Sequence record: HM035024
From: Shigella phage Shfl1
Direction: 5' to 3' (one strand)
DNA: 50,661 nucleotides
Part shown: positions 1,000 through 50,522 of the stretch, piece after piece
Layout: every line of letters starts with the position of its first letter
Position numbering within the stretch: the first letter of the stretch is position 1
Translations under genes and position numbers: made by a program
Notes under the pieces: model-generated
Told to the model about the DNA's origin: nothing
The model's input: only the letters and a program-made list of their open reading frames with translations
Database searches by the model: none

Positions 1000-1019
1000 A
1001 TAGCACTTTTTGTTAAAAC
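1000..1019 (+). promoter_or_regulatory. conserved motif ATAGCACTTTTTGTTAAAAC with TATAGT 18 nt downstream
   Basis: Motif, then 18-nt spacer, then TGgTATAGT (1038-1043) inside inverted repeat GGGATAAC/GTTATCCC. Confidence 0.5.
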
Positions 1020-1074
1020 CGGATCGGGATAACCTGGTATAGTTATCCCATCAACAACGAATGAGGAAACGAAG

Positions 1075-1269
1075 ATGGAAACGCAAATTGACGTAGTGGT
1101 TGTTCAGCGAGACTCAACTCATGAAAAGGGTCTGTTCAAGAAAGGAACCGAAATCACGATCGACCTTGAAGATATGGTTGCGTATCACTCGGGTCTTACC
1201 TGGAACGTAGTGCGCGTTGGTAGCGACTACAAACTCAAAGGCTTTAACACTTACTTTGCAGAGGCTTAA
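1075..1269 (+). CDS. hypothetical protein (64 aa)
   Basis: ORF preceded by conserved motif, -10-like hexamer and GAGGAA RBS. Confidence 0.5.
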   Translation: METQIDVVVVQRDSTHEKGLFKKGTEITIDLEDMVAYHSGLTWNVVRVGSDYKLKGFNTYFAEA

Positions 1270-1271
1270 TC

Positions 1272-1739
1272 ATGACGACCATTACCGTATTTCTGGCCAA
1301 AGATGAACTGGACGACGAAATGTCATTCTTCGCGTTCGAGCATAAAACCGGATCGCACTGGCACACGTACACTCATTACACGGTCATCGCAATTGAGGCT
1401 TACGACGGCGATTTCACTGACAAGCTGAGTAATTTTATTGAAGCGGTTAAGGCCAGTGATGGTTGCGAGTGGAAAGAAGATCACGAAGTTATGCGAATGT
1501 ATGAGATGATCAATCCGGTTCGCCTTGAGTCTTTCGAGCTGGATTCGAATGTTGGTATCAAGGTGAGAAAGTCGGGTGAGTTATTGCCAGGGATGCGTGT
1601 GCTGACTGGTTACTCAGGGCGTAAGGTATGGCGCACTGTATCCAAGATTCGCCAGCGATCGGCAACATGCTACAGCGTATTCTTTGAAGATGGCTGGAAT
1701 ATGCTTTCAGGCAGTGAAGTGAAGTATCTCACCAAATAG
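1272..1739 (+). CDS. hypothetical protein (155 aa)
   Basis: ORF tightly packed 2 nt after previous stop; same strand as early gene train. Confidence 0.55.
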   Translation: MTTITVFLAKDELDDEMSFFAFEHKTGSHWHTYTHYTVIAIEAYDGDFTDKLSNFIEAVKASDGCEWKEDHEVMRMYEMINPVRLESFELDSNVGIKVRKSGELLPGMRVLTGYSGRKVWRTVSKIRQRSATCYSVFFEDGWNMLSGSEVKYLTK

Positions 1740-1755
1740 CACGAACTGTTAAAAC
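1736..1755 (+). promoter_or_regulatory. conserved motif ATAGCACGAACTGTTAAAAC with TATAGT 18 nt downstream
   Basis: TGcTATAGT at 1774-1779. Confidence 0.5.
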
Positions 1756-1821
1756 AGGATCTGGGTATCTTGCTATAGTTACCACATTGAAACGCTTCGG
1801 GGCAAACCCAAAAGAAGGAAG

Positions 1822-1904
1822 CGGCAAACGTAGACCGGAGCCGCGCAAACCTCGAAGCAAATTGACTTGGGAAAACCCATTAGGAAGGAAGGGGCAAACG
1901 TAGA
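1822..1904 (+). repeat. direct repeat GGCAAACGTAGACCGGAGCC (two copies) in a long 5' leader
   Basis: Copies at 1822-1841 and 1885-1904, each preceded by GAAGGAAG-like purine tract. Confidence 0.8.
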
Positions 1905-1957
1905 CCGGAGCCTCGGAACCCCAGGTTAAAAATGATGTACCAATCAGAGGAATCACC

Positions 1958-2188
1958 ATGTCAATCGTCAAGAACCAGCAAGCCATCGATTCAACCAATA
2001 ACAACCGCTTTGCCATTTTCATCACGTCTATAGGTCGACGCTTTGCAGTCAAGGCCGTACCGGGCGGGTACAAAACATACATGGAAGATAACGGAAAGTG
2101 GGTGTGGTGCGAAAACCTTGCAAACTTCCTGGTATGGAACGCAGACCTCCAGGGCTTTGACGATATCAGCACTTTAATTGAGGAATAA
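1958..2188 (+). CDS. hypothetical protein (76 aa)
   Basis: ORF preceded by conserved leader ACCAATCAGAGGAAT. Confidence 0.5.
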   Translation: MSIVKNQQAIDSTNNNRFAIFITSIGRRFAVKAVPGGYKTYMEDNGKWVWCENLANFLVWNADLQGFDDISTLIEE

Positions 2189-2194
2189 ATAATC

Positions 2195-2422
2195 ATGCCA
2201 CATTACAGCAGCCTAACCAAACTGACCCGAGTCAACGGGCACATGATCCCGGCAAAATCCACTCACTACGCAATGGGCGCAAAACACGGAGTCTATTTCA
2301 AGTGGCGCGGTCAATGGAACTTCACGGCTGTGAACAATTTCTATATGCGCGTTCCTGGCGATGACCCGCAATCGGTAGTAGAGAACTCAATCGGCGACAA
2401 CAAGATCGAGGTGCTGAAATGA
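2195..2422 (+). CDS. hypothetical protein (75 aa)
   Basis: ORF with GAGGAA RBS 10 nt upstream. Confidence 0.5.
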   Translation: MPHYSSLTKLTRVNGHMIPAKSTHYAMGAKHGVYFKWRGQWNFTAVNNFYMRVPGDDPQSVVENSIGDNKIEVLK

Positions 2423-2708: not shown

Positions 2709-2900
2709 ATGTCTGATTTTATGCACCAAATGATTGCAGTATTCAAAGGCAGTGATGATGAGGAGGTTAAAGAGTGCTTTAACGTTGACAAGTCTTATAA
2801 CGCGTCACTAACCAGCTTTGGTAATATCTCATTGCTTGATGATAATGGCGATCCCTGGATATTCGACGAAGACACTGATTGCTTCGAGATTAAAGAATAG
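2709..2900 (+). CDS. hypothetical acidic protein (63 aa)
   Basis: ORF with AGGA RBS; Asp/Glu-rich. Confidence 0.45.
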   Translation: MSDFMHQMIAVFKGSDDEEVKECFNVDKSYNASLTSFGNISLLDDNGDPWIFDEDTDCFEIKE

Positions 2901-2916
2901 CACTTTTTGTTAAAAC
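2897..2916 (+). promoter_or_regulatory. conserved motif ATAGCACTTTTTGTTAAAAC with TATAGT 18 nt downstream
   Basis: TATAGT 2935-2940 inside inverted repeat GGGGTT/AACCCC. Confidence 0.5.
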
Positions 2917-2970
2917 TCAATATCGGGGTTGCGATATAGTAACCCCATCAACAACGAACGAGGATTTATC

Positions 2971-3187: not shown

Positions 3188-3676
3188 ATGAAAATTAAAT
3201 TACTGAGCAATGGCGGTTACAAAGGCTTTACTCGCGATCTGGAAGCTGACCCTATCGTGGTTGACGCGGTGAAGCGTGATGATAGCTTGGGCGGCTACCG
3301 CGTTAAGGTTGACGACCTGGTTAAAGCTGGAGTGTACGATCTTGACTATGGGCTTTCGGTTAGCCCTGTATTTGGTCCGGCTGACTTCAACGAGAAAGAC
3401 GGAACGATGTTCTTCTTCGAATGGGAAGTCCTGGCAAATCCTAGACCGCGCAAGGTTCGACTTCTCAACAATGGCGGCTACCCGATGCGACCAGGTTATG
3501 AGAACCGCACGTTCCCGGTTATCGTGGACTTTACCGAAATCACTAACAACTTGGTCTACGTCAGCAATGAGCATCTCCAGGCTGTAGGATTCACTGGCGG
3601 TATGCATAAAGAGAGTTTGTGCTTCGTTCGCGAAGAAATGCCCGGTTACTATTCTGAGTGCGAGTTGGTTTACTAA
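3188..3676 (+). CDS. hypothetical protein with internal duplication (162 aa)
   Basis: Start trimmed to ATG 3188 (GAGGA RBS); two NGGY-containing repeats (LLSNGGYKGF / LLNNGGYPMR). Confidence 0.6.
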   Translation: MKIKLLSNGGYKGFTRDLEADPIVVDAVKRDDSLGGYRVKVDDLVKAGVYDLDYGLSVSPVFGPADFNEKDGTMFFFEWEVLANPRPRKVRLLNNGGYPMRPGYENRTFPVIVDFTEITNNLVYVSNEHLQAVGFTGGMHKESLCFVREEMPGYYSECELVY

Positions 3677-3693
3677 GCACGAATTGTTAAAAG
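3674..3693 (+). promoter_or_regulatory. conserved motif variant TAAGCACGAATTGTTAAAAG with TATAAT 18 nt downstream
   Basis: TGgTATAAT 3712-3717 inside inverted repeat GGGGATT/AATCCCC. Confidence 0.5.
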
Positions 3694-3747
3694 GGGATTC
3701 TGCCTGATTGGTATAATCCCCACATCAACCACTAAGAGGAAATCGAT

Positions 3748-4296: not shown

Positions 4297-4316
4297 ACAG
4301 CACGAATTGCTAAACC
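4297..4316 (+). promoter_or_regulatory. conserved motif variant ACAGCACGAATTGCTAAACC with TATAGT 18 nt downstream
   Basis: TGaTATAGT 4335-4340 inside inverted repeat AAGGCCA/TGGCCTT. Confidence 0.5.
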
Positions 4317-4380
4317 TTCCGCAAGGCCATTTGATATAGTGGCCTTATTGAAGCACGGCAACCAATCAGAGGAATTAGCT

Positions 4381-4587
4381 ATGGCTACACGACTCACTCA
4401 GTGGCAGATTTACGACAAGGCATCACGCCTACGCGAATCACTTCGCGGATTGACAGCAAACGACAGAATGGAGATTATCGGGCACGCTTTGCACGAACTC
4501 ACGCCTCAGGACGTAACCTATCATTCATGCGGCAATAAATTCTGGAACGTAACATTCGAGGTAAAGAAAGATGAGCAAAACTCATAA
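4381..4587 (+). CDS. hypothetical protein (68 aa)
   Basis: Start trimmed to ATG 4381 after conserved leader CAACCAATCAGAGGAAT. Confidence 0.5.
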   Translation: MATRLTQWQIYDKASRLRESLRGLTANDRMEIIGHALHELTPQDVTYHSCGNKFWNVTFEVKKDEQNS

Positions 4588-4858
4588 GTTAAAAATTGCC
4601 CCGATCCATTTCATCGGTGTAATGAACGGCACAAAAACGGCAGAGTTCCGCATTAATGACCGCAACTTCCAGCCTGGCGATATCCTGGAGCTATGCGAGT
4701 TCGATCGGGGTGAGTTTACCAGGTGGGAAGTACATGCCAGGGTATCCGATGTTACAGACGTGACGCCATACATCAATAGCGGGTATGACGAGCAAGAATG
4801 CGACTTCACGCAATACGTGATGTTATCAATAAAACCTTACAGAAAGGTTAGACCATGA
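4571..4858 (+). CDS. ASCH-like (DUF3850-type) domain protein
   Basis: N-terminal pattern K-x-H-x-LKI-x-P-x-HF-x-GV-x-NG-x-KT-x-EFR-x-NDR-x-F-x-PGD matches the ASCH/DUF3850 signature from memory. Confidence 0.4.
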   Translation: MSKTHKLKIAPIHFIGVMNGTKTAEFRINDRNFQPGDILELCEFDRGEFTRWEVHARVSDVTDVTPYINSGYDEQECDFTQYVMLSIKPYRKVRP

Positions 4859-5641: not shown

Positions 5642-5860
5642 ATGGCTACTATCATGACAGCAGAAGATGCAGCACACGATGCAGTGGAAGGGATGCGCCC
5701 AAATAGCTCCAGAATCGCCCACTACTACAAATCTGATGTGTCGGCAGTGCAATTGGTCCATGAAATTTTAAGGCTCCCACAAGTCGATTCAGCGCGCGTG
5801 GTGACGTGCTTAAAAAATTATTTTTGCATCACTATTAAAACGAATAGCACGAATTGCTAA
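5642..5860 (+). CDS. hypothetical protein (72 aa), doubtful
   Basis: ORF only; its 3' end runs through the conserved promoter motif at 5844. Confidence 0.25.
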   Translation: MATIMTAEDAAHDAVEGMRPNSSRIAHYYKSDVSAVQLVHEILRLPQVDSARVVTCLKNYFCITIKTNSTNC

Positions 5861-5863
5861 AAC
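5844..5863 (+). promoter_or_regulatory. conserved motif ATAGCACGAATTGCTAAAAC with TATGAT 18 nt downstream
   Basis: TATGAT 5882-5887 inside inverted repeat AGGGGAAT/ATTCCCCT. Confidence 0.5.
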
Positions 5864-5917
5864 CTATCAAGGGGAATGCGCTATGATTCCCCTACACCAA
5901 CAAACGAGGAATCACCA

Positions 5918-6364
5918 ATGAAACACTTAATTTGCATTGAAACGCCTAACGATGAATACACTCTTCACGGCATAGGAATGTTCAAAGGTCACTACATGAC
6001 AGCAAGTATTCATGATGCGCGTCTTTGCGATGGCGATCTGATGATTACGTCAAAAGAAGTAAATCCGTACATTATGCAGAATCTTGGCAATAACGAATAT
6101 ATGGCCTACGGCTGCAACGCCGTGTACAAGCATATCAAGATCCGCAAGCGTGTCGTGCGTGCATTCAAGAAGATTGCAATGAAATACTGGAAGATGAGCA
6201 AGAAGGACGCCGGACGCTGGGCGCGCAATGTTGCTGACTCGTACTTCTATCGTAACGGTGAGTCCTGCTACTTCCTGATCGATGAAATTATGGAAAACTA
6301 CGGTGGCGACTTCAGTCAGTGTAACTTTGACGATTGGGCTGACTATGAGATCAGTTGTTGGTGA
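5918..6364 (+). CDS. hypothetical protein (148 aa)
   Basis: Start trimmed to ATG 5918 after ACGAGGAA RBS and conserved leader. Confidence 0.55.
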   Translation: MKHLICIETPNDEYTLHGIGMFKGHYMTASIHDARLCDGDLMITSKEVNPYIMQNLGNNEYMAYGCNAVYKHIKIRKRVVRAFKKIAMKYWKMSKKDAGRWARNVADSYFYRNGESCYFLIDEIMENYGGDFSQCNFDDWADYEISCW

Positions 6365-6383
6365 TAGCACGAATTGCTAAAAC
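6364..6383 (+). promoter_or_regulatory. conserved motif ATAGCACGAATTGCTAAAAC with TAGAAT 18 nt downstream
   Basis: TGtTAGAAT 6402-6407 inside inverted repeat AAGGGCATT/AATGCCCTT. Confidence 0.5.
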
Positions 6384-6446
6384 TTGCTCAAGGGCATTTG
6401 TTAGAATGCCCTTCGTTGAGTTAAGCAACCAATCAGAGGAATCAAT

Positions 6447-7291: not shown

Positions 7292-7864
7292 ATGAAAACA
7301 GCTATCATTTTAAACGGCGCACCTGGATCTGGAAAAGACACTATCGGATGTATCCTGGCTGACACTTACGATCACGTAGCCTTGCGCAGCTTCAAAGCGC
7401 CAATGTTTGAGATTGCCCGGGCAATCCTGGGTGAAGCTAACTACGAGTATTTCATGTTCTTATATGAGGACCGTCGATATAAAGAAGAGCCAGCATCAAT
7501 CCTGAACGGTAAAAGCCCACGCCAGTTTATGATCTGGATTAGCGAGGAAGTCATCAAGCCGCAGTTCGGAAATCGCTTCTTCGGTATGCGAGCGGAAAGC
7601 AAAGTGAAAGAGTCGCACTCCCTTTCGGTATTTACTGACGGTGGATTCAAAGACGAAATCTTGCAGATGATTGAAGGTGATATCCAGGTCAAGCTATGTC
7701 GAATACATCGCAACGGCTGCAACTTCGATAATGACAGTCGAGACTATATCTACCTGGATGATATGATCGGTGTCAACGGTTATCAAGAATGTGACTTCTT
7801 CTCTGTCGAAGGTCATCCAGAAATTACCGCTCATCACATAGCCGCCACATTCATCAATAAATAG
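7292..7864 (+). CDS. P-loop nucleotide kinase (dNMP-kinase-like or polynucleotide-kinase-like)
   Basis: N-terminal Walker A ILNGAPGSGKDT, as in T4 gp1 dNMP kinase and Pnk kinase domains. Confidence 0.55.
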   Translation: MKTAIILNGAPGSGKDTIGCILADTYDHVALRSFKAPMFEIARAILGEANYEYFMFLYEDRRYKEEPASILNGKSPRQFMIWISEEVIKPQFGNRFFGMRAESKVKESHSLSVFTDGGFKDEILQMIEGDIQVKLCRIHRNGCNFDNDSRDYIYLDDMIGVNGYQECDFFSVEGHPEITAHHIAATFINK

Positions 7865-7880
7865 CACGAATTGCTAAAGC
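7861..7880 (+). promoter_or_regulatory. conserved motif ATAGCACGAATTGCTAAAGC with TATAGT 18 nt downstream
   Basis: TGaTATAGT 7899-7904. Confidence 0.5.
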
Positions 7881-7936
7881 GTCGATGGGGTGATTTGATA
7901 TAGTTACCTCATCGACAACGAATAGAGAAAATCGAA

Positions 7937-8146: not shown

Positions 8147-8487
8147 TTACGATTAACCTGTCAGAGAAGCAAGCTCGTGAAATCCTGGATACGATCGGCG
8201 ACCAGTTACACATCAAAGGCGCTACCGCCGAACTTCTTAACCAGATCGAAAGGCAGCTTACCCCAGCATCAACGAATCAATCTGAGTTTGCGACCTGGAA
8301 GAGCGAGCGCATCTTGCCAAATATCATCAATGCATGGAAGCGCAAGCATAAAAAAGAAATCAACGTTGAGGATTTATTTACCGATGAATTAAGTCCTTCA
8401 AAGGTTGCTCAATATCAGTTGCGATACATGGAATCAGTTTGCAATCAGGTTTTAGGTGCTAATTTTTCATTTGGGAGAGGTAAATAA
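8143..8487 (+). CDS. hypothetical protein (114 aa)
   Basis: ORF; ATGA overlap with previous gene. Confidence 0.5.
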   Translation: MITINLSEKQAREILDTIGDQLHIKGATAELLNQIERQLTPASTNQSEFATWKSERILPNIINAWKRKHKKEINVEDLFTDELSPSKVAQYQLRYMESVCNQVLGANFSFGRGK

Positions 8488-9691: not shown

Positions 9692-9710
9692 ATAGCACTA
9701 AATGTTAAAC
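9692..9710 (+). promoter_or_regulatory. conserved motif variant ATAGCACTAAATGTTAAAC upstream of small terminase
   Basis: Motif directly followed by GAGAGGA RBS region; no hairpin. Confidence 0.35.
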
Positions 9711-9725
9711 AGAGAGGATGGATTT

Positions 9726-15609: not shown

Positions 15610-16410
15610 ATGGCTTACGAAAATTTAATGTTGCGCCCAGCGTGTCCGGGCAATCTTTCTGATACTTCAACCTACAACATTGATGGATCTTGTGTTGCTC
15701 AGGGGGATATTGAGTTCGGCGCTGCGGTTCAGGTTGTCGGGATCGTTGATGGAGTGAAGGTTGTAAAGGCGCTTGCTGATGGTGGAACTCCTTACGGTAT
15801 CGCTTTCCGTTCACAATACGAACACCTGAGCGGTAAAATATTAGACGGTGAAGTTTGCAATGTCGTTTCTCATGGTCGCATGTGGACACTTACTTCTCTT
15901 GATGAATCTCCGGCCTTATTCTCAAAGTTACAATTTGGATCTGGTGGTGTTGTTACTGGTAGCTCTGGTTCCGTAGGTTGGACATTTGCTGGCGGGTTTG
16001 TTAAGCACGATGACGGGTACATTATTGAGGTGCAGGTGAAGCAAAATTCTTTCATTACTCCACCTCCACCACCTCCTGTGGTTCTTGTTGAGTCTGCGAC
16101 GATTACCACTAACAAGGAGAGTCCTCAGCCAAACAATGCACCCGTGCAATTTAGCGTTGCTGTGAAACCTGACAACGCCACTAATAAAACTGGCGTGTGG
16201 AAACCTGACAACGCCACTAATAAAACTGGCGTGTGGTCTGTTGATGCTGAAGATGTTGCGACAATAGATCCAAAATCTGGCGTTCTTACTCCAATTGGTG
16301 GAGATGCGGCAGGTAGCGTAAGCGTAAATTGGACGGCTAACGATGCCAGCAAAACTAAAGAATCGATCGCTTATGTCTTTAATGCTACGCCAGCCGAAGA
16401 AGAGTCATAA
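15610..16410 (+). CDS. capsid decoration-like protein with C-terminal Ig-like domain (paralog B)
   Basis: Shared N-terminal domain with 15073..15549; PPPPPP linker; C-terminal Big_2-like segment with exact 12-aa tandem repeat KPDNATNKTGVW. Confidence 0.4.
   Translation: MAYENLMLRPACPGNLSDTSTYNIDGSCVAQGDIEFGAAVQVVGIVDGVKVVKALADGGTPYGIAFRSQYEHLSGKILDGEVCNVVSHGRMWTLTSLDESPALFSKLQFGSGGVVTGSSGSVGWTFAGGFVKHDDGYIIEVQVKQNSFITPPPPPPVVLVESATITTNKESPQPNNAPVQFSVAVKPDNATNKTGVWKPDNATNKTGVWSVDAEDVATIDPKSGVLTPIGGDAAGSVSVNWTANDASKTKESIAYVFNATPAEEES
16165..16236 (+). repeat. perfect 36-bp tandem duplication within coding sequence
   Basis: AAACCTGACAACGCCACTAATAAAACTGGCGTGTGG occurs twice back to back (16165-16200 and 16201-16236). 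Confidence 0.9.
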
Positions 16411-16429
16411 CATAAAAACACTTTGACGC

Positions 16430-20213: not shown

Positions 20214-20233
20214 CAACCAATCAGGAGAACATC

Positions 20234-35673: not shown

Positions 35674-35715
35674 ATAGCACGAATTGCTAAACAATGATTT
35701 TATCATTGTGCTATC
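35674..35715. promoter_or_regulatory. inverted pair of motif copies between tail fibre start and primase stop
   Basis: ATAGCACGAATTGCTAAAC followed by AATGATTTTATCATTGTGCTAT. Confidence 0.35.
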
Positions 35716-35729
35716 TGACTTGCAATGGA

Positions 35730-36702: not shown

Positions 36703-36741
36703 AATAAAAAACGCGTAGAAGGATGTTACCCCGCTACGCGT
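36703..36741 (-). terminator. hairpin/T-run between HTH regulator and primase (minus strand)
   Basis: 8-bp stem ACGCGTAG/CTACGCGT with 15-nt loop followed by T6 on minus strand. Confidence 0.4.
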
Positions 36742-36746
36742 CGTTT

Positions 36747-36766
36747 GTTTTAACTAAAAATGCTAT
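36747..36766 (-). promoter_or_regulatory. conserved motif (minus orientation) overlapping 3' end of HTH regulator gene
   Basis: Reverse complement reads ATAGCATTTTTAGTTAAAAC. Confidence 0.4.
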
Positions 36767-37202
36767 TGGTCGTCCCGATATCTTCCTTCTTCACCACTCG
36801 CATAAACTTCTTGTTCTTGCATCGCTTCTCTAGGCACTTGCCGTTACCGTCAAACTTGAGGTCGAATCGCAACCATGCGGCGCGGAATCCTTTACAACCC
36901 TGACGACGGTAAGCACGATGTGCAGCTTCAGCACCTTGCCACGAAATCATGTTGCGCTCCTTCCATCCCTGCACGGTCTGATTGCTAACTTTCAGAGCCT
37001 TTGCGCAGGCCGCAGGGCCGCCATAATATTCGATAAGAGCATCAAGTCTCGCTCTCAGTCCGGCGCGTGTTTCTTCTTTATGGATATAGAAACCGCAGCG
37101 TTGGCGTGGCTTTTTATCTTTACCGCGTCTCGTTCCGTTGTTACCATTGATGTGACGTTTATCGATTTCACCAGTTGACTCTGCGATGCGTTGCATATTC
37201 AT
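36750..37202 (-). CDS. putative HTH DNA-binding regulator (Cro/YdaS-like)
   Basis: GGPAACAKALKVSNQTVQGWKERNMISWQ resembles Cro/YdaS-type helix-turn-helix; basic N-terminus; start trimmed to ATG 37202 (AGGAG RBS). Confidence 0.4.
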   Translation of the reverse strand: MNMQRIAESTGEIDKRHINGNNGTRRGKDKKPRQRCGFYIHKEETRAGLRARLDALIEYYGGPAACAKALKVSNQTVQGWKERNMISWQGAEAAHRAYRRQGCKGFRAAWLRFDLKFDGNGKCLEKRCKNKKFMRVVKKEDIGTTNSIFS

Positions 37203-37214: not shown

Positions 37215-37235
37215 GTAGCACTTTTTGCTAAAAAC
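37215..37235 (+). promoter_or_regulatory. conserved motif GTAGCACTTTTTGCTAAAAAC upstream of helicase, divergent from HTH regulator gene
   Basis: TATTAT about 18 nt downstream (37253-37258). Confidence 0.45.
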
Positions 37236-37296
37236 GTTTACTGTATGTCGTGTATTATAGCGTAAACGATACAATGATTCAAAGGATTAAATAGCC

Positions 37297-39315: not shown

Positions 39316-39728
39316 TTACAGACAAAGGAGATTACTTAGAGTTTTACGAGCGAGATCCCAGCGACACTCGAAAGGAGGACGCGCACCAGGTAGATTGCGT
39401 GTCCTGGCTGAAATACAATTTCCCACACCTTCTATTTTGGCACACTGTCAATGAAGGTGAAAAAACAATCACTTCAGCACTCAGGGATGAGCAGGCTGGA
39501 TTACTTAAAGGCGTGTCAGACTTCGTTATCCTGATTGGTGTAAACTCACGCCACCCGTTCGCAGCTATCGAACTCAAACGGGTTAATAAGTCCGGCAAAG
39601 GAAAGGCATCACCAGTCAGCGATAAGCAAAAGGAATTTCTCCGTAAGGTTCGCGAACGCGGTGGATTCTCTGCGGTGGCTTACGGATTTGAGCAATTCAA
39701 GATCGCAATTTACGAAATGATGAAATAG
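39312..39728 (+). CDS. VRR-NUC domain nuclease
   Basis: PD-(D/E)XK-type core VSDFVILIG ... AAIELKRVNKSG ... SDKQKEFL typical of VRR-NUC. Confidence 0.55.
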   Translation: MITDKGDYLEFYERDPSDTRKEDAHQVDCVSWLKYNFPHLLFWHTVNEGEKTITSALRDEQAGLLKGVSDFVILIGVNSRHPFAAIELKRVNKSGKGKASPVSDKQKEFLRKVRERGGFSAVAYGFEQFKIAIYEMMK

Positions 39729-39744
39729 CACTTTTTGTTAAAAC
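39725..39744 (+). promoter_or_regulatory. conserved motif ATAGCACTTTTTGTTAAAAC upstream of Dam methylase
   Basis: TGgCATTAT 18 nt downstream (39763-39768). Confidence 0.45.
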
Positions 39745-39795
39745 TGCCGGAATGGAATCTGGCATTATTATTTCACCAAAACGAGAGGACTAAAA

Positions 39796-40509: not shown

Positions 40510-40757
40510 TGAACGAGAAAATGATTCAGGTTAAGTTAACTGATCAAGGTTTATGGCTGCTTTATCGAGCTACGTGCTGCGAAATTATGGAGCGAAACGG
40601 ATTGACTCAGGATGTTATTGGTTGCGATCTGTGGGAGTTCACTAGTTCTCTTGATATGTCTTTCGATGAGATAAAAAATGAATATATCGAGAATTGGCCT
40701 TCAATTATCCAGAAGGACGTAGATGAACTTAAAGCAGATACGATCGTACAGCACTAA
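40506..40757 (+). CDS. hypothetical protein (83 aa)
   Basis: ATGA overlap with Dam stop; start trimmed to 40506. Confidence 0.45.
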   Translation: MMNEKMIQVKLTDQGLWLLYRATCCEIMERNGLTQDVIGCDLWEFTSSLDMSFDEIKNEYIENWPSIIQKDVDELKADTIVQH

Positions 40758-40767
40758 TTGCTAAAAA
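40748..40767 (+). promoter_or_regulatory. conserved motif variant ACAGCACTAATTGCTAAAAA with TATAGT 18 nt downstream
   Basis: TATAGT 40786-40791 after inverted repeat CCCGGCGAAAGTCGGG. Confidence 0.45.
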
Positions 40768-40823
40768 TACCCGGCGAAAGTCGGGTATAGTTATTTCATC
40801 GATACGAAATGAGGAATCAAAAG

Positions 40824-41033: not shown

Positions 41034-41283
41034 ACGAGAGGTTTGGGAGCACGCGAAGGAATGCGGAATCTCAGAAGATATAGCACTAATAGCAAAATAT
41101 TTCGATATAAAGGATGTTAGCATTATCTCAAACGGAAAGATTTCATTTATGGAAGATATGCCGAGAAAAATGCATAGAGTGCCAGCCACCCCATCACTTG
41201 AGTTTTATCGTGAAGAAGGAAAGAGAATTGAGCGAGAACGAAAGAACGCAAAGAACAACAAGCCTTCCAGGCTTAAATATTAA
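41011..41283 (+). CDS. hypothetical protein (90 aa), uncertain frame
   Basis: ORF overlapping 41114..41515 in another frame; weak RBS; A7 run at 41016-41022. Confidence 0.3.
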   Translation: MLIKKQGKREVWEHAKECGISEDIALIAKYFDIKDVSIISNGKISFMEDMPRKMHRVPATPSLEFYREEGKRIERERKNAKNNKPSRLKY

Positions 41284-41593: not shown

Positions 41594-42745
41594 ATGTCAC
41601 AAGCTAAAATCACCACCGAGCAACTTATTGAAGAGCGCATGAGCGGCCTAACACTTCGCGAAATCGCGGAAAAATACGGTATGCACATTCGCACTGTTGA
41701 AGCGCGCCATGCCAAGCTGGCAAAAGAAGGTCATTTTCACGGTAACGAGCATGTTGCTAAAAACGTGCCCGAGGGATTCATGGTAAAAGGCACGTCGACG
41801 ATGATTCGCGGCGATGGGACCGAGGTAGTGCGCTGGGTAAAAACCGATCAGGACCGTGAGAAGATTGCGGCAATGATGGAGGCGGCGCGCATTGCATTCT
41901 GTGAAGACCTGCCGCGAGCAAAGCCAACCGAGCTACTAACCTCGCAAGGGATTACGACAGCGATGGGTAAGCTGGCACTCTATCCGGTATTCGACCTGCA
42001 CATTGGTGCGCTTGCTCACAAGCATGAATGCGGAGAGAACTACTCTACCGACGTAGCCGAAAAAGTGCTTGTCGACTTCTTCAATTACGCGATCGATATT
42101 GCCCCGAACGCAGAGAAAGCTGTTCTGTTAATCGGCGGTGACTTCCTTCACTCGGACGGCCTTGATGCTGTTACCCCGGCAAGCGGTCACGTTCTGGATC
42201 AGGATTCACGATACGCAAAATTGGTGCATGTTGCGATCCGTTCGGTGCGTCGCGCTATCGACAAAATGCTTATGAAACACAAAGAAGTCGAGGTTCAGAT
42301 TATTGAAGGGAACCACGACCAGGCCGGGATGATTTGGCTACGTGCTGCAATGTCGGCATATTATGAAGACGAGCCGCGAGTATTCGTTGACGTTAGCCCT
42401 ATGATTCTGCATAAGACTCGATGGGGAAACACCTTATTGGGATACACTCACGGGCACACTATGAAAAAGGCAGACACGCGACTTGCAGCGATGGCGGCAG
42501 ACTTCCGTGCAGACTTCGGAGAGAGCAAGTATGTGTATACTCATAGCGGTCACTGGCATCATCAGACAATCACTGAACACTCGTTAGGTATCGATGAGGT
42601 TCACGGTCAGTTAGGAGCGAAGGATGCATACGCCGCGCGCGGCGGGTGGCGCTCATATCGTCAGGCGGCGGTAATCGTTTACGATAAACAGTTTGGGGAA
42701 ATCGGTCGGTTCATCTATCGTCCAGAAATGACAGGATCGCACTAA
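41594..42745 (+). CDS. calcineurin-like metallophosphoesterase with N-terminal HTH-like segment
   Basis: Metallophosphatase motifs FDLHIG (DxH), GGDFLHSDG (GD...), EGNHDQ (GNHD/E), HSGHWHH; N-terminal LTLREIAEKYGMHIRTVEARHAKL. Confidence 0.55.
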   Translation: MSQAKITTEQLIEERMSGLTLREIAEKYGMHIRTVEARHAKLAKEGHFHGNEHVAKNVPEGFMVKGTSTMIRGDGTEVVRWVKTDQDREKIAAMMEAARIAFCEDLPRAKPTELLTSQGITTAMGKLALYPVFDLHIGALAHKHECGENYSTDVAEKVLVDFFNYAIDIAPNAEKAVLLIGGDFLHSDGLDAVTPASGHVLDQDSRYAKLVHVAIRSVRRAIDKMLMKHKEVEVQIIEGNHDQAGMIWLRAAMSAYYEDEPRVFVDVSPMILHKTRWGNTLLGYTHGHTMKKADTRLAAMAADFRADFGESKYVYTHSGHWHHQTITEHSLGIDEVHGQLGAKDAYAARGGWRSYRQAAVIVYDKQFGEIGRFIYRPEMTGSH

Positions 42746-42756
42746 TTGATAAAAAC
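42737..42756 (+). promoter_or_regulatory. conserved motif variant TCGCACTAATTGATAAAAAC with TATAGT 17 nt downstream
   Basis: TATAGT 42774-42779 after inverted repeat CCCGAAGGGATTCGGG. Confidence 0.4.
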
Positions 42757-42810
42757 GCCCGAAGGGATTCGGGTATAGTAACCACATCAAAAACAAAGAG
42801 GCTACATATC

Positions 42811-46313: not shown

Positions 46314-46368
46314 CACAATAAACTCCTTAGTTGACGGTGTGAATGATACACCGCCAATGTTACACGCG

Positions 46369-46386
46369 TTTTGCAAAAAGTGCTAT
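46369..46386 (-). promoter_or_regulatory. conserved motif (minus orientation) upstream of P-loop ATPase gene
   Basis: Reverse complement ATAGCACTTTTTGCAAAA; hairpin GGTGT...ACACC with TATCAT downstream. Confidence 0.45.
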
Positions 46387-46806: not shown

Positions 46807-46868
46807 TGCGTTAACTCCTGATTGGTTATCTTGAATAAGGTCACTTTATCAAATGACCTTACGGCAAT

Positions 46869-46886
46869 ATTAACAAATCGTGCTAT
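46869..46886 (-). promoter_or_regulatory. conserved motif (minus orientation)
   Basis: Reverse complement ATAGCACGATTTGTTAAT; followed by inverted repeat AAGGTCA/TGACCTT. Confidence 0.45.
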
Positions 46887-47324: not shown

Positions 47325-47383
47325 TTTTAATTCCTTTGTTTCGTTTGGTGTGGGAGTAATATACCTTACTCCCTATTTATTGT

Positions 47384-47402
47384 CTTTAGCAATTAGTGCT
47401 AT
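47384..47402 (-). promoter_or_regulatory. conserved motif (minus orientation)
   Basis: Reverse complement ATAGCACTAATTGCTAAAG; followed by inverted repeat GGGAGTAA/TTACTCCC with TATATT. Confidence 0.45.
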
Positions 47403-48443: not shown

Positions 48444-48500
48444 AATTATTTCCTCGTTTACTGTTGATGGGATGACTATACCATCCACCCCATTTATGCG

Positions 48501-48518
48501 TTTAACAAAAAGTGCTAT
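48501..48518 (-). promoter_or_regulatory. conserved motif (minus orientation)
   Basis: Reverse complement ATAGCACTTTTTGTTAAA; TATAGT (plus 48475-48480) within inverted repeat GGATGG/CCATCC. Confidence 0.45.
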
Positions 48519-48679
48519 TCTATAACTTCCTTTTGAACGACCTTGATCTCATCAAAGAAGATATTCCTGTCATTCTCAGTGAGATTCTTGATCTCGTTAG
48601 CTTTGCTCTCGGTTGAGCATATCTCGATCAGTTCGTCACCTTCATAATAGATGGTCCCAACAACGCAATATACGATCAT
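48515..48679 (-). CDS. small hypothetical protein (54 aa)
   Basis: Hand translated; ATGA overlap with upstream gene; GGAGG RBS; 3' end overlaps promoter motif. Confidence 0.35.
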   Translation of the reverse strand: MIVYCVVGTIYYEGDELIEICSTESKANEIKNLTENDRNIFFDEIKVVQKEVIE

Positions 48680-49056
48680 AATTTTTCCTCCAGCACTTCA
48701 CGGATGCGGTTTATTGCGTCCAGCTTATCGCAATCCCAACGAGTCGTTCCGTTATCCGGTCGCTCTTCGAACGCGAGACTCACCTCTTCGAGAAGGTTGT
48801 CAATGATAGCCTCCTTCTCGTCACCGCCCAGCTTTCCGAACTCAACCGATCCTACGTAACGATTGATATAAGCAATCATGCTCTGATGTTCTTCAATGGT
48901 GAATATATCCGTGATACTGATCCCGGTATCTCGCTGAGTGATAACAACCCGGTTGCTGGGGTGGATTATCCCGCCCACCAGGCGATTGCAAATCTCAACT
49001 GTGAAACCTTTCTCATTTGCGCGGTCAATTGCTTCCTGAAGTTTTGAATCTGTCAT
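48676..49056 (-). CDS. hypothetical protein (126 aa)
   Basis: ORF preceded by conserved leader CAACCAATCAGAGGAAT. Confidence 0.5.
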   Translation of the reverse strand: MTDSKLQEAIDRANEKGFTVEICNRLVGGIIHPSNRVVITQRDTGISITDIFTIEEHQSMIAYINRYVGSVEFGKLGGDEKEAIIDNLLEEVSLAFEERPDNGTTRWDCDKLDAINRIREVLEEKL

Positions 49057-49123
49057 CTCGTCATTCCTCTGATTGGTTGATGTGTTAAATATACCCCGAT
49101 TACCTTCGGGGCGTTTAGCAATT

Positions 49124-49141
49124 CGTGCTATTAAGCGATAT
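49124..49141 (-). promoter_or_regulatory. conserved motif (minus orientation)
   Basis: Reverse complement ATAGCACGAATTGCTAAA; hairpin CCCCGAAGGTAATCGGGG then TATATT. Confidence 0.45.
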
Positions 49142-49466
49142 CGAACTCAGCGGCATATGCTTTCTTGAAGCCAGCTTCACGCATGGTGCGCTTGCTGATT
49201 TTGCGAGGGAATTTGTACTGGCTGTTAGGCTTAATCCACCAAAAGCAGGCAGTTTCACGAACGATTTCATATTTACCATAGCGGGTGAAGGTGTCACGTT
49301 CAGCGTCCGGCTGATAAATACAGGTCAGGAATTTAGCTGCATTTTCTTCAGTTTTGATTTCTTCCCATACGAAGGAATCCATACCGTTAACTTTGCAAGC
49401 TACCATGATGTACTCAACGCCGTTTTCGATTTTGATGATTTCGTTACCGCGATTTTCGTATTTCAT
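49131..49466 (-). CDS. hypothetical protein (111 aa)
   Basis: ORF downstream of motif. Confidence 0.5.
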   Translation of the reverse strand: MKYENRGNEIIKIENGVEYIMVACKVNGMDSFVWEEIKTEENAAKFLTCIYQPDAERDTFTRYGKYEIVRETACFWWIKPNSQYKFPRKISKRTMREAGFKKAYAAEFDIA

Positions 49467-49529
49467 TTTCCTGCCCCTGATGTGTATCTCGTTTCGATGA
49501 GGTAATTATGCCAAATCACACCGATCGAG

Positions 49530-49548
49530 TTTTAACAAAAAGTGCTAT
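49530..49548 (-). promoter_or_regulatory. conserved motif (minus orientation) overlapping 3' end of methyltransferase-like gene
   Basis: Reverse complement ATAGCACTTTTTGTTAAAA. Confidence 0.4.
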
Positions 49549-50236
49549 TTGCGATTGCTTTGAAAAATCCACGCGGCGACAGCGATCGTATCAACTTCGT
49601 TTTGGCAGACTTGCCGCCCAGCTTGTTATGCTGTGCAGAGTACCCGTCAGGAAGGTTTACAGGTTTTCTCTCCGGCATGACAAAATCGTCCGAGGTCCAA
49701 AGGCACGTCTTTTTCGGGTAAGCATCGCGCGGCGCAATATACATAGGGAACCAGGGATGTGAGTCATTCTCAGGAAGGTAGCCGCCATACTCCCAGGGAT
49801 TGAATGAGTGATCTGGTTTTCTCCAGGCAGATGACAGGACGCTAACCGGATTCTCAATGATGTAGGTCACGCCCAGGGCATCGCCAATATTCGCAGCAAT
49901 CCGTGCGGTTGCAACAGCCTTCTCCTGGAATAACGGATCGCGCTCACGCTTACTTGCAAAGTGCGCGGCACCACTAACAGCCAGGTCGGTGCATGGAGGA
50001 AATGCCATGATGAAATCTGGCTTGCCATACACACCCGCGATCGCATCACGTTCGAACTTCTCATCAATGAAGACGTTCACATACTCAATATTCGGATGCT
50101 CTACCCGGGCGTTGTACTTTGCATAATCTCCGTGATCGGCCCCGTCAAAGTTGAAGCACATTACCTTATGACCTCGCTTAGCCAGTTCATGACCAGCAAG
50201 GCCGGAGCCATCGAATAATGACCAGATTAATTTCAT
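49532..50236 (-). CDS. C5-cytosine-methyltransferase-like protein (short, divergent)
   Basis: Motif-I-like LFDGSGLAG, motif-IV-like FPPCTDLAVSG (Pro-Cys but Thr in place of Gln), motif-VI-like IIENPV; only 234 aa. Confidence 0.4.
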   Translation of the reverse strand: MKLIWSLFDGSGLAGHELAKRGHKVMCFNFDGADHGDYAKYNARVEHPNIEYVNVFIDEKFERDAIAGVYGKPDFIMAFPPCTDLAVSGAAHFASKRERDPLFQEKAVATARIAANIGDALGVTYIIENPVSVLSSAWRKPDHSFNPWEYGGYLPENDSHPWFPMYIAPRDAYPKKTCLWTSDDFVMPERKPVNLPDGYSAQHNKLGGKSAKTKLIRSLSPRGFFKAIANSTFC

Positions 50237-50445
50237 TTCGTTACCTCCTTGAATACCGTTTTTCCGTCATTGGTCAGGAATCGATCCCACCCATTCATTG
50301 AACGGAAAACGCCGATTTGATTTTGATGATTGTCAGTCGCAAAGTAACCGCCATCAATAAGGTAGATCTCATATACTGATTGATTCGTGAAGCTGTCGGT
50401 GCTGACGCTAATGCATCGCACAGCACATTCAAATTCTGGTTCCAT
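50233..50445 (-). CDS. hypothetical protein (70 aa)
   Basis: ORF preceded by conserved leader CAACCAATCAGAGGAAT. Confidence 0.45.
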   Translation of the reverse strand: MEPEFECAVRCISVSTDSFTNQSVYEIYLIDGGYFATDNHQNQIGVFRSMNGWDRFLTNDGKTVFKEVTK

Positions 50446-50504
50446 TGCATGATTCCTCTGATTGGTTGATGTGATGAATCATACCCTGCCAACATGGATA
50501 AGTC

Positions 50505-50522
50505 GTTAGCAAAAAATGCTAT
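50505..50522 (-). promoter_or_regulatory. conserved motif (minus orientation)
   Basis: Reverse complement ATAGCATTTTTTGCTAAC; TATGAT downstream on minus strand. Confidence 0.4.

Follow-up and report, generated by a model that had tools for sequence, protein, structure and literature searches.

The 20-bp repeat and its cassettes

The window, i.e. the whole 50,661-nt stretch of DNA analysed here, is a T1-like Drexlerviridae genome in which about 28 oriented copies of a 20-bp repeat, ATAGCACnnWTTGYTAAAAC, precede nearly all early genes. With up to one mismatch, TAGCA-N5-TGYTA gives 52 strand-hits in the window against 5.65 expected, a number reached in none of the shuffles, which bears out the repeat family described in an earlier note on this DNA. 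A matrix scan of the window detected 24 strong oriented copies and weaker ones at 26381, 32660, 41081 and 42737. Every site that the earlier note listed holds a copy, with small offsets (its 47 is 47-66 and its 49124 is 49112-49131), the one at 31125 being degenerate; two copies (32659-32678 and 41080-41099) were absent from its list. The restriction of the motif to the early and replication regions is supported, as is its scarcity in the structural module, since 10-30 kb has only 16432(-), 20198(-) and the weak 26381(+). All copies face the same way as their transcription. The repeat is already known from phage TLS, whose 21-nt repeats were published in 2024 with their function posed as an open question (PMC11447400).

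In 21-22 copies a sigma70 -10 hexamer, often TGn-extended, lies 17-19 bp (mostly 18 bp) downstream and points into the next gene, and a variable stem-loop is placed either between the repeat and the -10 or around the -10. The copies are listed below, the 20-mer being termed marbox for its identity to the host sites discussed in the next section.

47-66 (-): consensus marbox close to where the window starts; GAACCG (28-23), not -10-like, at the expected distance
1000-1050 (+): cassette; marbox 1000-1019 ATAGCACTTTTTGTTAAAAC; TGG+TATAGT 1038-1043; predicted +1 1050; hairpin GGGATAAC/GTTATCCC enclosing the -10
1736-1786 (+): cassette; marbox 1736-1755; TGC+TATAGT 1774-1779; predicted +1 1786
2897-2947 (+): cassette; marbox 2897-2916; TATAGT 2935-2940; predicted +1 2947; hairpin GGGGTTGC/GTAACCCC
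3674-3724 (+): cassette; marbox 3674-3693 (TAAGCAC variant); TGG+TATAAT 3712-3717; predicted +1 3724
4297-4347 (+): cassette; marbox 4297-4316 ACAGCACGAATTGCTAAACC; TGA+TATAGT 4335-4340; predicted +1 4347; hairpin AAGGCCA/TGGCCTT
5844-5894 (+): cassette; marbox 5844-5863; TATGAT 5882-5887; predicted +1 5894; hairpin AGGGGAAT/ATTCCCCT
6364-6414 (+): cassette; marbox 6364-6383; TGT+TAGAAT 6402-6407, the hexamer of E. coli micF; predicted +1 near 6414; hairpin AAGGGCATT/AATGCCCTT
7861-7911 (+): cassette; marbox 7861-7880; TGA+TATAGT 7899-7904; predicted +1 7911; 15-bp stem including G-U pairs, -23 kcal/mol
9692-9711 (+): marbox immediately 5' of the small terminase gene's RBS and ATG; -10 lacking at the expected distance
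16397-16447 (-): consensus marbox 16447-16428, antisense to + strand head genes; TGT+TATGAC, 18-bp gap
20163-20213 (-): consensus marbox 20213-20194, antisense to + strand tail genes; TGA+TACGAT, 18-bp gap
26380-26399 (+): weak marbox-like ATAGCACAAAAAGGTAAACA, 2 bases 5' of the ATG of the 1149-aa tail ORF; no -10
31125-31140 (+): degenerate copy ATAGCACGATTGCAAT, one base short and AAA missing; not a marbox
32659-32708 (+): cassette, one of the two newly found, before an erf-like gene; marbox 32659-32678 ACGGCACAAATAGCTAAACA; TGT+TATAAT 32696-32701 (17-bp gap); hairpin GAGGTG/CACCTC
35674-35724 (+): consensus marbox 35674-35693, antisense to the - strand primase gene; TGC+TATCTG, a weak hexamer
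36716-36766 (-): degenerate marbox 36766-36747, at the Cro-like gene's stop codon; true terminator hairpin ACGCGTAG/CTACGCGT and T-run follow
37215-37265 (+): cassette before the helicase gene; marbox 37215-37234; TATTAT 37253-37258, overlapping the opposite-strand TATAAT in the Cro-like gene's canonical promoter
39725-39775 (+): cassette before a dam-like methyltransferase gene; marbox 39725-39744; TGG+CATTAT 39763-39768; hairpin TGCCGGA/TCTGGCA between marbox and -10
40748-40798 (+): cassette; marbox 40748-40767; TATAGT 40786-40791; hairpin TACCCGGC/GTCGGGTA between marbox and -10, annotated as a terminator in its T1 equivalent
41080-41130 (+): weaker cassette; marbox 41080-41099 ATAGCACTAATAGCAAAATA; TGT+TAGCAT 41118-41123
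42736-42786 (+): cassette; marbox 42736-42755 ATCGCACTAATTGATAAAAA; TATAGT 42774-42779; hairpin CCCGAA/TTCGGG between marbox and -10
46336-46386 (-): cassette; marbox 46386-46367, core GCACTTTTTGCAAAA; TATCAT 46348-46343
46836-46886 (-): cassette; marbox 46886-46867; TGA+TAAAGT 46848-46843; hairpin TAAGGTCA/TGACCTTA
47351-47402 (-): cassette; marbox 47402-47383; TATATT 47363-47358 (19-bp gap); hairpin GGGAGTAA/TTACTCCC
48468-48518 (-): cassette; marbox 48518-48499; TGG+TATAGT 48480-48475; predicted +1 48468
49081-49131 (-): cassette; marbox 49131-49112; TATATT 49093-49088; hairpin CCCCGA/TCGGGG between marbox and -10
49498-49548 (-): cassette; marbox 49548-49529; TGG+CATAAT 49510-49505
50471-50522 (-): cassette; marbox 50522-50503, core GCATTTTTTGCTAAC; TATGAT 50483-50478 (19-bp gap)

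For four copies no usable -10 occurs where it is expected: 9692(+) and 26380(+), which adjoin start codons, 36751(-), which precedes the terminator, and 47-66(-).

The stem-loop region folds in excess of expectation: over positions 20-56, folding energies average -10.4 kcal/mol, and those of shuffled sequences -4.8 kcal/mol (t = -20). Folding is stronger on the sense strand (z-score -2.8, antisense -1.5; p = 2e-22) because of G-U pairs.

Likeness of the repeat to the marbox

A single protein molecule, carrying two helix-turn-helix motifs, occupies the marbox, whose consensus is GCAHWWWWTGYYAAA (PMC6900184). All 15 positions of this consensus are matched by the TTT and TAA groups of the repeat, and 14 of the 15 by the GAA group; each conserved position of the repeat agrees with the published consensus. 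The marbox is also written AYnGCACnnWnnRYYAAAY, a form that, with up to one mismatch, has 22 matches against 0.99 expected. The pattern gcannwwntgnnaaa, as defined in PMC12052159, gives 22 exact matches in the window (1.0 expected), which no shuffle reached. When the window was scanned with a matrix made solely from 73 Salmonella ChIP-seq sites for MarA/SoxS/Rob/RamA (table in PMC10268841), the top 24 matches were the phage copies. These score 15.4-18.1 bits, compared to a median of 11.2 and a maximum of 17.9 for the host sites, and outscore 81-100% of Salmonella's own sites; the core of the copy at 46369 is identical to a site bound by RamA/SoxS in Salmonella. The 20-mer is thus probably, as judged by its sequence, a near-consensus marbox for host MarA, SoxS and Rob. 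A literature link between marboxes and T1-like phages was not found.

The inverted repeat had been taken as the signature of a dimeric, probably phage-encoded protein. This probably fails because conservation is asymmetric and the copies are oriented: G3 is conserved in 100% of copies while its dyad partner is C in 54% and T in 46%, C6 (93%) stands opposite T10 (96%), and both flanks are A-rich and not complementary. The partial dyad GCA-N5-TGY is already contained in the marbox consensus. A gene for a MarA/SoxS/Rob-like protein was found neither in the window nor in T1-like loci (tblastn, E > 0.7), and none is listed in the RefSeq annotations of T1 and Sfin-1.

Promoter geometry and a proposed mode of action

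The fixed spacing reported for the window holds, most copies having their best -10-like hexamer 18 bp past the 20-mer, with gaps of 17 bp for 32660 and 19 bp for 47387 and 50507. Among 377 unique motif instances from T1-like phage loci, 259 have the best hexamer exactly 18 bp past the motif; 225 of these 259 (87%) carry G at -14, 116 (45%) TG at -15/-14 and 177 CA at -1/+1. The proposal of extended -10 promoters with no usable -35 is supported (mean 1.5/6 matches at a 17-bp spacer), as is a motif centre near -40/-42, the position of a class II activator. Orientation and gap are as in the model class II promoter, E. coli micF, in which ACAGCACTGAATGTCAAAAC-N18-TAGAAT precedes the micF 5' end, as marbox-N18-hexamer does in the phage cassettes. 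In its complex with micF, Rob touches GCAC at G-47 and A-45 (PMC9178005), and the phage cassettes have G and A at -47 and -45 from the predicted +1; RamA is positioned at about -41 on micF (PMC8811837). The hallmarks of class II sites are forward orientation, overlap with the -35 position and no recognisable -35 (PMC10268841), and the phage cassettes share all of them. Marbox match and micF-like placement together suggest that the phage probably borrows host activators for its early genes. What the earlier note called a "phage-specific promoter class" is better seen as a class II marbox promoter of host type that the phage uses about 20 times.

We consider a class II marbox promoter worked by host activators the probable and best explanation, and we infer activator binding, activation, start sites and the role of the stem-loop from sequence as follows. 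Each repeat would be the upstream half of an early-gene cassette of about 75 nt, its asymmetric site, lying forward at about -50 to -31 in place of a -35 element, being occupied by one molecule of the AraC/XylS-type MarA, SoxS or Rob (RamA is a further candidate in Klebsiella, Salmonella and Enterobacter). Once the DNA has entered, the -10 element would be recognised by host sigma70 RNA polymerase, while the bound activator would touch the alpha C-terminal domain and sigma region 4, as Rob and RamA do in their solved micF complexes. Transcription would start at the conserved CA, about 50 nt past the motif start, giving a leader of 24-26 nt (ATCAACAACGAAnGAGGAA or ACCAATCAGAGGAA) before the start codon. 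The stem-loop most likely acts in RNA that reads through from the gene before it, either as an attenuator or as a structure at the 3' end, and would isolate each small transcription unit as do the stem-loops of the PeSL promoter/stem-loop cassettes of T4-type phages, which the phage cassettes resemble in the two placements, GGGG...CCCC stems and G-T pairs. PeSL stem-loops terminate transcription in vivo (PMC2839356).

This model has limits. T1-like phages grow well in uninduced laboratory cells. There, levels of MarA and SoxS are low and most Rob is sequestered, with no access to DNA (PMC2787020; PMC10268841), therefore activator dependence cannot be absolute unless free Rob is enough at these very strong sites, or an activator is released or induced by infection itself. 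The promoters with a full TGn extension (about 45%) can work without any activator, and activation by RamA and MarA is modest, about two- to fourfold (PMC8811837). The promoter model alone does not explain the four copies lacking a -10 or the three antisense copies.

Conservation and alternative readings

Motif and spacing are kept in the related phages T1, TLS, Rtp, e4/1c, F20 and Vc1, while an unrelated Vibrio phage has one chance match to the motif. Vc1, a family member labelled as a Vibrio cholerae phage, may speak against the host-activator reading; host labels in the T1-like family can be unreliable, e.g. there are T1-like records labelled as Campylobacter phages. A perfect copy of the cassette is present in the T4-like Klebsiella phage KP15, of a different family, where its activity, if any, would not depend on T1-like-specific proteins.

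It is possible, though doubtful, that the real ligand is the conserved Cro-like protein (36750-37202, -), which, made first from its own sigma70 promoter, would bind TAGCA-N5-TGYTA as a dimer centred at -42 and either activate all cassettes in a delayed-early switch or later shut them, stoperator-like. The protein is conserved in the family (41 clusters, 821 phage records) and models as an all-helical Cro fold, with Xfaso 1 Cro and N15 Cro as best PDB matches. Its gene has a near-consensus, activator-independent promoter (TTGAAT-17-TATAAT, 37282-37254), a perfect dyad copy (37216-37230) lies between this promoter and the ribosome-binding site, and stoperator and enhancer ideas were put forward by the TLS authors (PMC11447400). 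A symmetric dimer, however, does not foresee asymmetric, oriented conservation, whereas no conserved position departs from what the marbox consensus predicts; a second repeat family (GTGTAACAGGTGTCTAT, 31.1-31.4 kb) is an equal or better candidate operator, and the KP15 cassette may also speak against this ligand. The Cro-like protein is the helix-turn-helix protein pointed out in the earlier note; it may be an additional binder, but its model has the single HTH of Cro, not the double HTH of MarA, and it is not needed to explain the motif.

We regard it as unlikely that the cassettes are activator-independent extended -10 promoters whose marbox likeness has no regulatory consequence, the 20-mer being an enhancer-like or UP-like element, or a recombination patch that shuffles small early genes. 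A UP element was raised for TLS (PMC11447400), and PeSL cassettes, for which the same patch role was proposed, recombine and form mini-circles (PMC2839356). The frequencies of G at -14 and TG given above suit such promoters, and the cassette has moved between the T1-like and KP15 families. Neither a patch nor an A/T-rich UP element, the consensus of which consists of A/T tracts with no GCAC, needs GCAC, TG and AAA at exact marbox positions or a strict 18-bp micF-like register to the -10. Sites of 15-18 bits on the host matrix are expected to bind MarA/SoxS/Rob whenever these are free, therefore some regulatory effect is hard to avoid.

That the element works in RNA, UAGCA-N5-UGYUA (5-bp stem, 5-nt loop) being a boxB-like protein-binding hairpin, e.g. 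for antitermination across the next stem-loop, and the TATAGT-like hexamer a loop or pause, is very improbable. In its favour, C/T at position 13 preserves pairing (G-C or G-U) on the sense strand alone, the stem-loop further downstream has the character of RNA structure formed by the sense strand, and the cassettes sit in regions read through from upstream genes. Against it, the window has no Rfam match, we know of no precedent for antitermination sites at a density of about 25 in 50 kb, the small hairpin is conserved in sequence and does not covary, the conserved AAA(A/C) tail and leading A are left unexplained, and TG at -15/-14, TAnnnT and CA at +1 form a promoter profile at fixed distances.

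Genome setting and promoter register of the repeat

At 50,661 bp, the window represents the complete, or almost complete, genome of a T1-like siphovirus (Drexlerviridae, Tunavirus-like). In the terminase-portal region it shares 96% identity with Shigella phage phiL and 92-95% identity with many T1-like phages of Escherichia and Shigella. The RefSeq annotations of Sfin-1 and T1 have the same gene order as the window, with these modules:

0.4-9.6 kb, plus strand: small early genes
9.7-30 kb: structural module
31.6-44 kb: recombination, replication and lysis genes
44-50.6 kb, minus strand: small early genes

One small early protein (4571-4858, plus strand) matches DUF3850 (E = 5e-15) and phrog_986, and is called "RNA-binding protein" in other annotations.

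An earlier note had described a repeated intergenic 20-mer, taken to be a palindromic phage-specific promoter/operator motif, at a fixed distance from -10 elements. The motif does exist, in numbers that chance would not give: at most one mismatch being allowed, TAGCA-N5-TGYTA has 52 strand-hits in the window versus 5.65 expected, and a matrix scan of the window yields 24 strong and four weaker oriented copies with the consensus AATAGCACnnnTTGnTAAA, in extended form AATAGCACnnnTTGnTAAA(AC). The positions listed in that note hold to within a few bases, save that 31125 is a decayed copy and that the copies at 32659 and 41080 were missed. The fixed spacing is likewise borne out, the hexamer lying 18 bp past the 20-mer in most window copies (the exceptions being 32660 with 17 bp, and 47387 and 50507 with 19 bp), and 21-22 copies aim into the downstream gene. 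The -10 hexamers are of the sigma70 type (TATAGT, TATTAT, CATAAT, TATAAT, TAGAAT and others).

The same register was found in 377 unique instances drawn from T1, TLS, Rtp, F20, e4/1c and many uncultivated T1-like contigs, in 259 of which the best hexamer follows the motif at a gap of exactly 18 bp. G stands at -14 in 225 of these 259, TG at -15/-14 in 116 and CA at the predicted -1/+1 in 177. With a 17-bp spacer, the supposed -35 agrees with TTGACA at a mean of only 1.5 of 6 positions. TTGYTA, inside the motif, is unusable as a -35, as had been argued before, since the spacer would be 22 bp; other registers yield at most 3.1 of 6 matches to a -35, and that at a 19-bp spacer only. Reading TAAAAC as an alternative extended -10 fails as well, there being no T at -7 and the downstream profile fitting TATAGT.

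The repeat itself has already been published. The 2024 re-annotation of phage TLS lists 18 intergenic 21-nt repeats, aaATAGCACnnnTTGnTAAAA, about 76 nt before start codons, oriented with transcription and falling into T, G and A subgroups (TTT, GAA, TAA or AAA); its authors noted the repeat in T1, Rtp and Rogue1 too, found three sigma70-like promoters only, and proposed a stoperator, an enhancer site or an UP element, posing the function as a question for the field (PMC11447400). The TLS and window repeats are the same element, with the same consensus, subgroups, orientation and distance to the ATG; in the window, the predicted +1 and a leader of 24-26 nt place the motif about 75 nt before the ATG. 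The published Rogue1 and KanT1 accounts do not refer to the repeat, and the TLS paper is silent on the 18-bp link to an extended -10, on the stem-loop and on the marbox identity (PMC11447400). Within the searchable literature, what is new is the fixed extended -10 link, the stem-loop and, most of all, the identity of the repeat with the marbox, the site of the host activators MarA, SoxS and Rob, in a class II geometry of the micF type; no paper was found there that joins the marbox, MarA, SoxS or Rob to T1-like phages or Drexlerviridae.

Identity with the marbox and comparison with micF

The view of the motif as a palindromic operator of a dimeric protein probably does not stand: conservation is asymmetric and every copy is in one orientation. 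G3 is present in 100% of copies, and its dyad partner, position 13, is C in 54% and T in 46%; C6 (93%) faces T10 (96%), and both flanks are A-rich instead of complementary. The motif is no symmetric operator. Its "palindrome" arises for the most part as a by-product of the marbox consensus, which itself contains GCA-N5-TGY with flanking Y/A.

Every conserved position of the repeat is specified by the marbox, which is the site of the monomeric double-HTH proteins MarA, SoxS and Rob. Two definitions of the marbox have been published, GCAHWWWWTGYYAAA (PMC6900184) and gcannwwntgnnaaa (PMC12052159). The latter has 22 exact matches in the window versus 1.0 expected, and 0 shuffles reached 22. With the 19-nt marbox consensus AYnGCACnnWnnRYYAAAY, 22 matches at no more than one mismatch were obtained versus 0.99 expected. 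On a matrix built only from 73 Salmonella MarA/SoxS/Rob/RamA ChIP-seq sites, the top 24 sites of the window are the phage repeats (15.4-18.1 bits), which outscore 81-100% of the host sites (host median 11.2 bits), and 36 hits above 12 bits occur in the window versus 5.0 in shuffles. The copy at 46369 is identical to a host site bound by RamA/SoxS, and the T-group core GCACTTTTTGCTAAA differs from the marbox of the mar promoter, CCACGTTTTGCTAAA, at two of 15 positions (mar sequence from PMC8279559).

An Rfam scan of the window matched 0 families. Among other identities considered for the motif, the Lrp consensus, YAGHAWATTWTDCTR, matches the TTT group at 13 of 15 positions; it leaves the invariant GCAC, TG and AAA unexplained. 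A lambda boxB-like RNA hairpin is disfavoured by sequence conservation without covariation, and the promoter profile explains more. Against the sigma54 -24/-12 consensus (TGGCAC-N5-TTGC), the motif TAGCAC-N3-TTGC has AG instead of GG and is 2 bp short, and for a T4 MotA box the distance to the -10 is wrong.

In class II marbox promoters a forward marbox lies over the -35 region, no -35 being recognisable, and the activator touches the alpha C-terminal domain and sigma region 4 (PMC12052159, PMC9178005, PMC10268841, PMC8811837, PMC6900184). Escherichia coli micF, taken from the chromosome, reads ACAGCACTGAATGTCAAAAC-N18-TAGAAT followed by the 5' end of micF (Rfam-confirmed); the phage cassette, as we call the repeat with its -10 hexamer, stem-loop and leader, reads ATAGCACTTTTTGTTAAAAC-N18-TATAGT. 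Both have an asymmetric 20-bp forward marbox in place of the -35, with GCAC distal and YAAA proximal, and an 18-bp gap to a sigma70 -10, and neither has a recognisable -35. In the structure of Rob with polymerase on micF, Rob contacts G-47 and A-45 of GCAC (PMC9178005). Given the predicted start, the phage GCAC occupies -47 to -44, with G at -47 and A at -45. The phage differs from host promoters in carrying about 20 copies in a 50-kb virulent genome, as opposed to single chromosomal promoters, in having marboxes nearer to consensus than nearly all host sites and in their fusion to a stem-loop and a short conserved leader. By consensus, orientation, position and the lack of a -35 beside a sigma70 -10, the phage cassettes appear to be class II marbox promoters. 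This geometry is anchored on micF alone; scored with the ChIP-derived matrix, sodA yields nothing above 8 bits, and at fumC the choice of hexamer is ambiguous, with a gap of 15-19 bp.

Two phage systems offer partial parallels. T4 middle promoters (MotA/AsiA) resemble the phage class in that the sigma70 -10 is kept and the -35 is replaced by an activator box. MotA/AsiA is a case of sigma appropriation, in which the activator touches sigma region 4, and the MotA box has its centre near -30, at a distance of 11-13 bp from the -10. Box and motif are superficially alike (TTTGCTTTA versus TTTGCTAAA); unlike the MotA arrangement, the phage TTGYTA lies 22 bp from the -10 and the candidate activator would come from the host. 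The T1 and Sfin-1 annotations contain neither a MotA nor an AsiA gene. The stoperators of L5, a temperate mycobacteriophage, are asymmetric repressor sites that block elongation. They are like the motif in being many oriented intergenic copies of one short sequence placed along transcription, and unlike it in that the phage motif has a fixed promoter register, occurs in a phage that is virulent, and agrees with the site of a host activator.

Stem-loop, leader and distribution of the cassette

Each copy begins at the stop codon of the upstream gene or a few bases from it, and continues with the 20-mer, about 15 variable bases, (TG)n with the hexamer, a 6-nt G+C-rich stretch, the CA of the predicted start, the leader and the ATG. 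The leader is 24-26 nt long and of two recurrent types, ATCAACAACGAAnGAGGAA or ACCAATCAGAGGAA. Leaders of types ATCAACAACGAAnGAGGAA and (A)ACCAATCAGAGGAAT are seen at +1 to about +26, for example at 1050-1075, 4360-4385 and 49081-49056, and (A)ACCAATCAGAGGAAT occurs also before genes lacking the full cassette (e.g. 20214-20235, plus strand). The leaders may be translation-initiation contexts carried with the cassette.

Positions 20-56 of the cassette fold at -10.4 kcal/mol versus -4.8 kcal/mol for shuffles (t = -20). The stem sequences vary between copies and the location is kept, in two classes: the hexamer is inside the stem-loop in 132 cases ("enclosing"), and in 61 the stem falls in the stretch from marbox to hexamer ("between"). 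With composition controlled, the sense strand outfolds the antisense strand (z = -2.8 versus -1.5, p = 2e-22) because of G-U pairs, which suggests that the structure forms in RNA transcribed through from the gene upstream. An intrinsic terminator would have a G+C-rich stem with a U-tract right behind it. Stems of the "between" class lead into a moderately U-rich tail (4.1 T in the next 10 nt), some being flagged by a terminator scan and some having equivalents with a terminator annotation in T1; "enclosing" stems have next to no U-tract (0.9 T in the next 10 nt). In a small sample of orthologous cassettes substitutions fall mostly at unpaired positions (194) and some are compensatory, with 19 double and 22 single pair-keeping changes and 53 pair-breaking ones.

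The PeSL cassettes of the T4-type phages RB49 and phi1, about 100 bp long and situated between small early ORFs, consist of a promoter, a stem-loop, a ribosome-binding site and an ATG; the stem-loop, of GGGG...CCCC stems with G-T pairs, lies in the spacer that separates the -35 from the -10 or overlaps the -10, and one such stem-loop lowered the expression of lacZ downstream of it to the same degree as the rrnB T1 terminator (PMC2839356). These cassettes mediate gene shuffling and were suggested to be attenuators and recombination linkers (PMC2839356). The T1-type cassette has the same two stem placements, stem composition, G-T pairs and genomic setting; however, PeSL cassettes have a consensus sigma70 -35 with an A/T-rich upstream region and are activator-free, whereas the T1-type cassette has a marbox and no -35. 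On the basis of these parallels and of the folding, we read the stem-loop, with moderate confidence, as an attenuator or 3'-end structure isolating each small unit. We take the whole element to be a class II marbox promoter of host type joined with a PeSL-like stem-loop and a leader, present about 20 times in a virulent phage and found also in at least one T4-type phage.

The search in related phages suggested by the earlier note gave the same picture across T1-like members, marbox density and hexamer geometry being alike in T1, TLS, Rtp, e4/1c, F20, Vc1 and several uncultivated contigs; T1 has 20 marboxes, and for 14 of them the hexamer is correctly placed. The unrelated Vibrio phage vB_VpP_1, used as a negative control, had one chance match only. 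Vc1 (NC_054898.2, Drexlerviridae, 45% G+C), labelled a Vibrio cholerae phage, has 12 marboxes, most of them in T1-type geometry; either an activator that binds the marbox exists in its host or the label itself is in doubt, and host labels are sometimes doubtful within the T1-like family.

The cassette also occurs in KP15, a T4-like Klebsiella phage (Slopekvirus), where a perfect T1-type copy, ATAGCACTTTTTGTTAAAAC-N15-TGGTATAGT-TACCCC-ATCGAAAC...ATG, was annotated by the authors of that genome as 'putative middle promoter; discovered using MEME'. Its neighbours are a copy shorter by one base and a PeSL-like promoter that does have a true -35, under the same annotation:

KP15 (NC_014036.1), 1620-1690, 2360-2445 and 2716-2790: cassettes/promoters

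In a second large contig (T4-like Slopekvirus) a marbox lies directly upstream of a canonical TTGCAT-17-TATATT promoter (8234-8320). Since KP15 shares the cassette with the T1-like phages, the cassette has evidently moved between phage families, and if the KP15 copy is active, T1-like-specific proteins would probably not be needed.

Candidate ligands, possible consequences and odd copies

Most simply read, the very strong phage marboxes would be occupied by host MarA, SoxS or Rob (and by RamA in Klebsiella, Salmonella and Enterobacter hosts). In a tblastn search whose queries were MarA, SoxS and the N-terminal domain of Rob, the window had no AraC/XylS double-HTH gene and T1-like loci had no match better than E = 0.76; no gene of the AraC/XylS type is present in the Sfin-1 and T1 annotations.

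The only annotated phage regulator is the Cro-like protein encoded at 36750-37202 on the minus strand, which is confined to this phage family (Drexlerviridae T1-like) and remains a rival or additional ligand of the cassettes. It has a weak Cro/YdaS-type HTH match, and its model (pLDDT 81) is an all-helical Cro fold with a single HTH, the nearest structures being Xfaso 1 Cro and N15 Cro; the modelled fold is Cro-like and not MarA-like. A second repeat family, GTGTAACAGGTGTCTAT, provides it, however, with an equally good candidate operator (5 hits versus 0.27 expected):

31147-31163, 31290-31306 and 31308-31324, plus strand: GTGTAACAGGTGTCTAT repeats in A+T-rich non-coding DNA upstream of the recE-like gene
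31182-31199 and 31425-31440: inverted partial copies
222-237, plus strand, and 343-358, minus strand: weaker copies

These repeats may serve as iterons of an origin or as operators for the Cro-like protein.

The Cro-like gene has its own near-consensus sigma70 promoter (TTGAAT-17-TATAAT, 37282-37254, minus strand) and the recE-like gene a canonical one (TTGACT-16-TATAAT, 31535-31562, plus strand), both without a marbox. A few genes can therefore be transcribed by polymerase without help, about 20 units bearing marboxes. The -10 of the Cro-like gene promoter and the TATTAT of the helicase marbox promoter overlap on opposite strands, so that the two promoters probably compete.

The reading of host activators at phage marboxes is drawn from sequence throughout. 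T1-like phages grow readily in ordinary cultures. We know of no resistant host mutants in these activator genes, an absence of evidence that redundancy of three or four activators would explain. When no inducer is present, MarA and SoxS are scarce and most of the Rob is sequestered, with no access to DNA (PMC2787020, PMC10268841), and stimulation by this activator family is typically only two- to fourfold (PMC8811837). An extended -10 can fire unaided and, given stimulation of this size, the marbox may therefore tune expression instead of gating it.

A wider proposal, which we put forward tentatively and hold to be rather improbable, is that the whole T1-like early programme is wired to the host stress regulators Mar/Sox/Rob(/Ram), that lytic development is tuned through the activation of these proteins by bile salts, fatty acids, oxidants and antibiotics, that 20-25 near-consensus marboxes per genome titrate the activators off host efflux and stress promoters as the phage DNA replicates, and that the promoter/attenuator module is mobile between T1-like and KP15-like T4-type phages. 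If host activators do work at the phage marboxes, a large family of virulent enterobacterial phages, notorious as laboratory and fermenter contaminants and members of therapy cocktails, would be tuned by or dependent on efflux and oxidative-stress regulators, and phage growth would be predicted to interact with antibiotics or bile. The tolC gene is under the same regulators (a bound site, PMC10268841), and TolC is the TLS receptor. The host-activator reading would also explain why standard searches return few sigma70 promoters in these genomes (PMC11447400), and would provide a set of very strong natural marboxes for the study of MarA, SoxS and Rob.

Copies without a -10 lie at 47-66 (minus strand), 9692-9711 (plus strand), 26380-26399 (plus strand) and 36751, and the promoter model leaves those at 47-66, 9692 and 26380 unexplained. 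The copies at 9692 and 26380 abut the ribosome-binding site/ATG of the small terminase gene and of a gene for a 1149-aa tail protein, respectively. Three consensus marboxes are antisense, with correctly spaced, mostly weaker hexamers:

16397-16447, minus strand: head region, TGn and TATGAC at 18 bp
20163-20213, minus strand: tail region, TGn and TACGAT at 18 bp
35674-35724, plus strand: primase region, TGn and TATCTG at 18 bp

These may be antisense promoters driving antisense RNA, or inverted relics of recombination.
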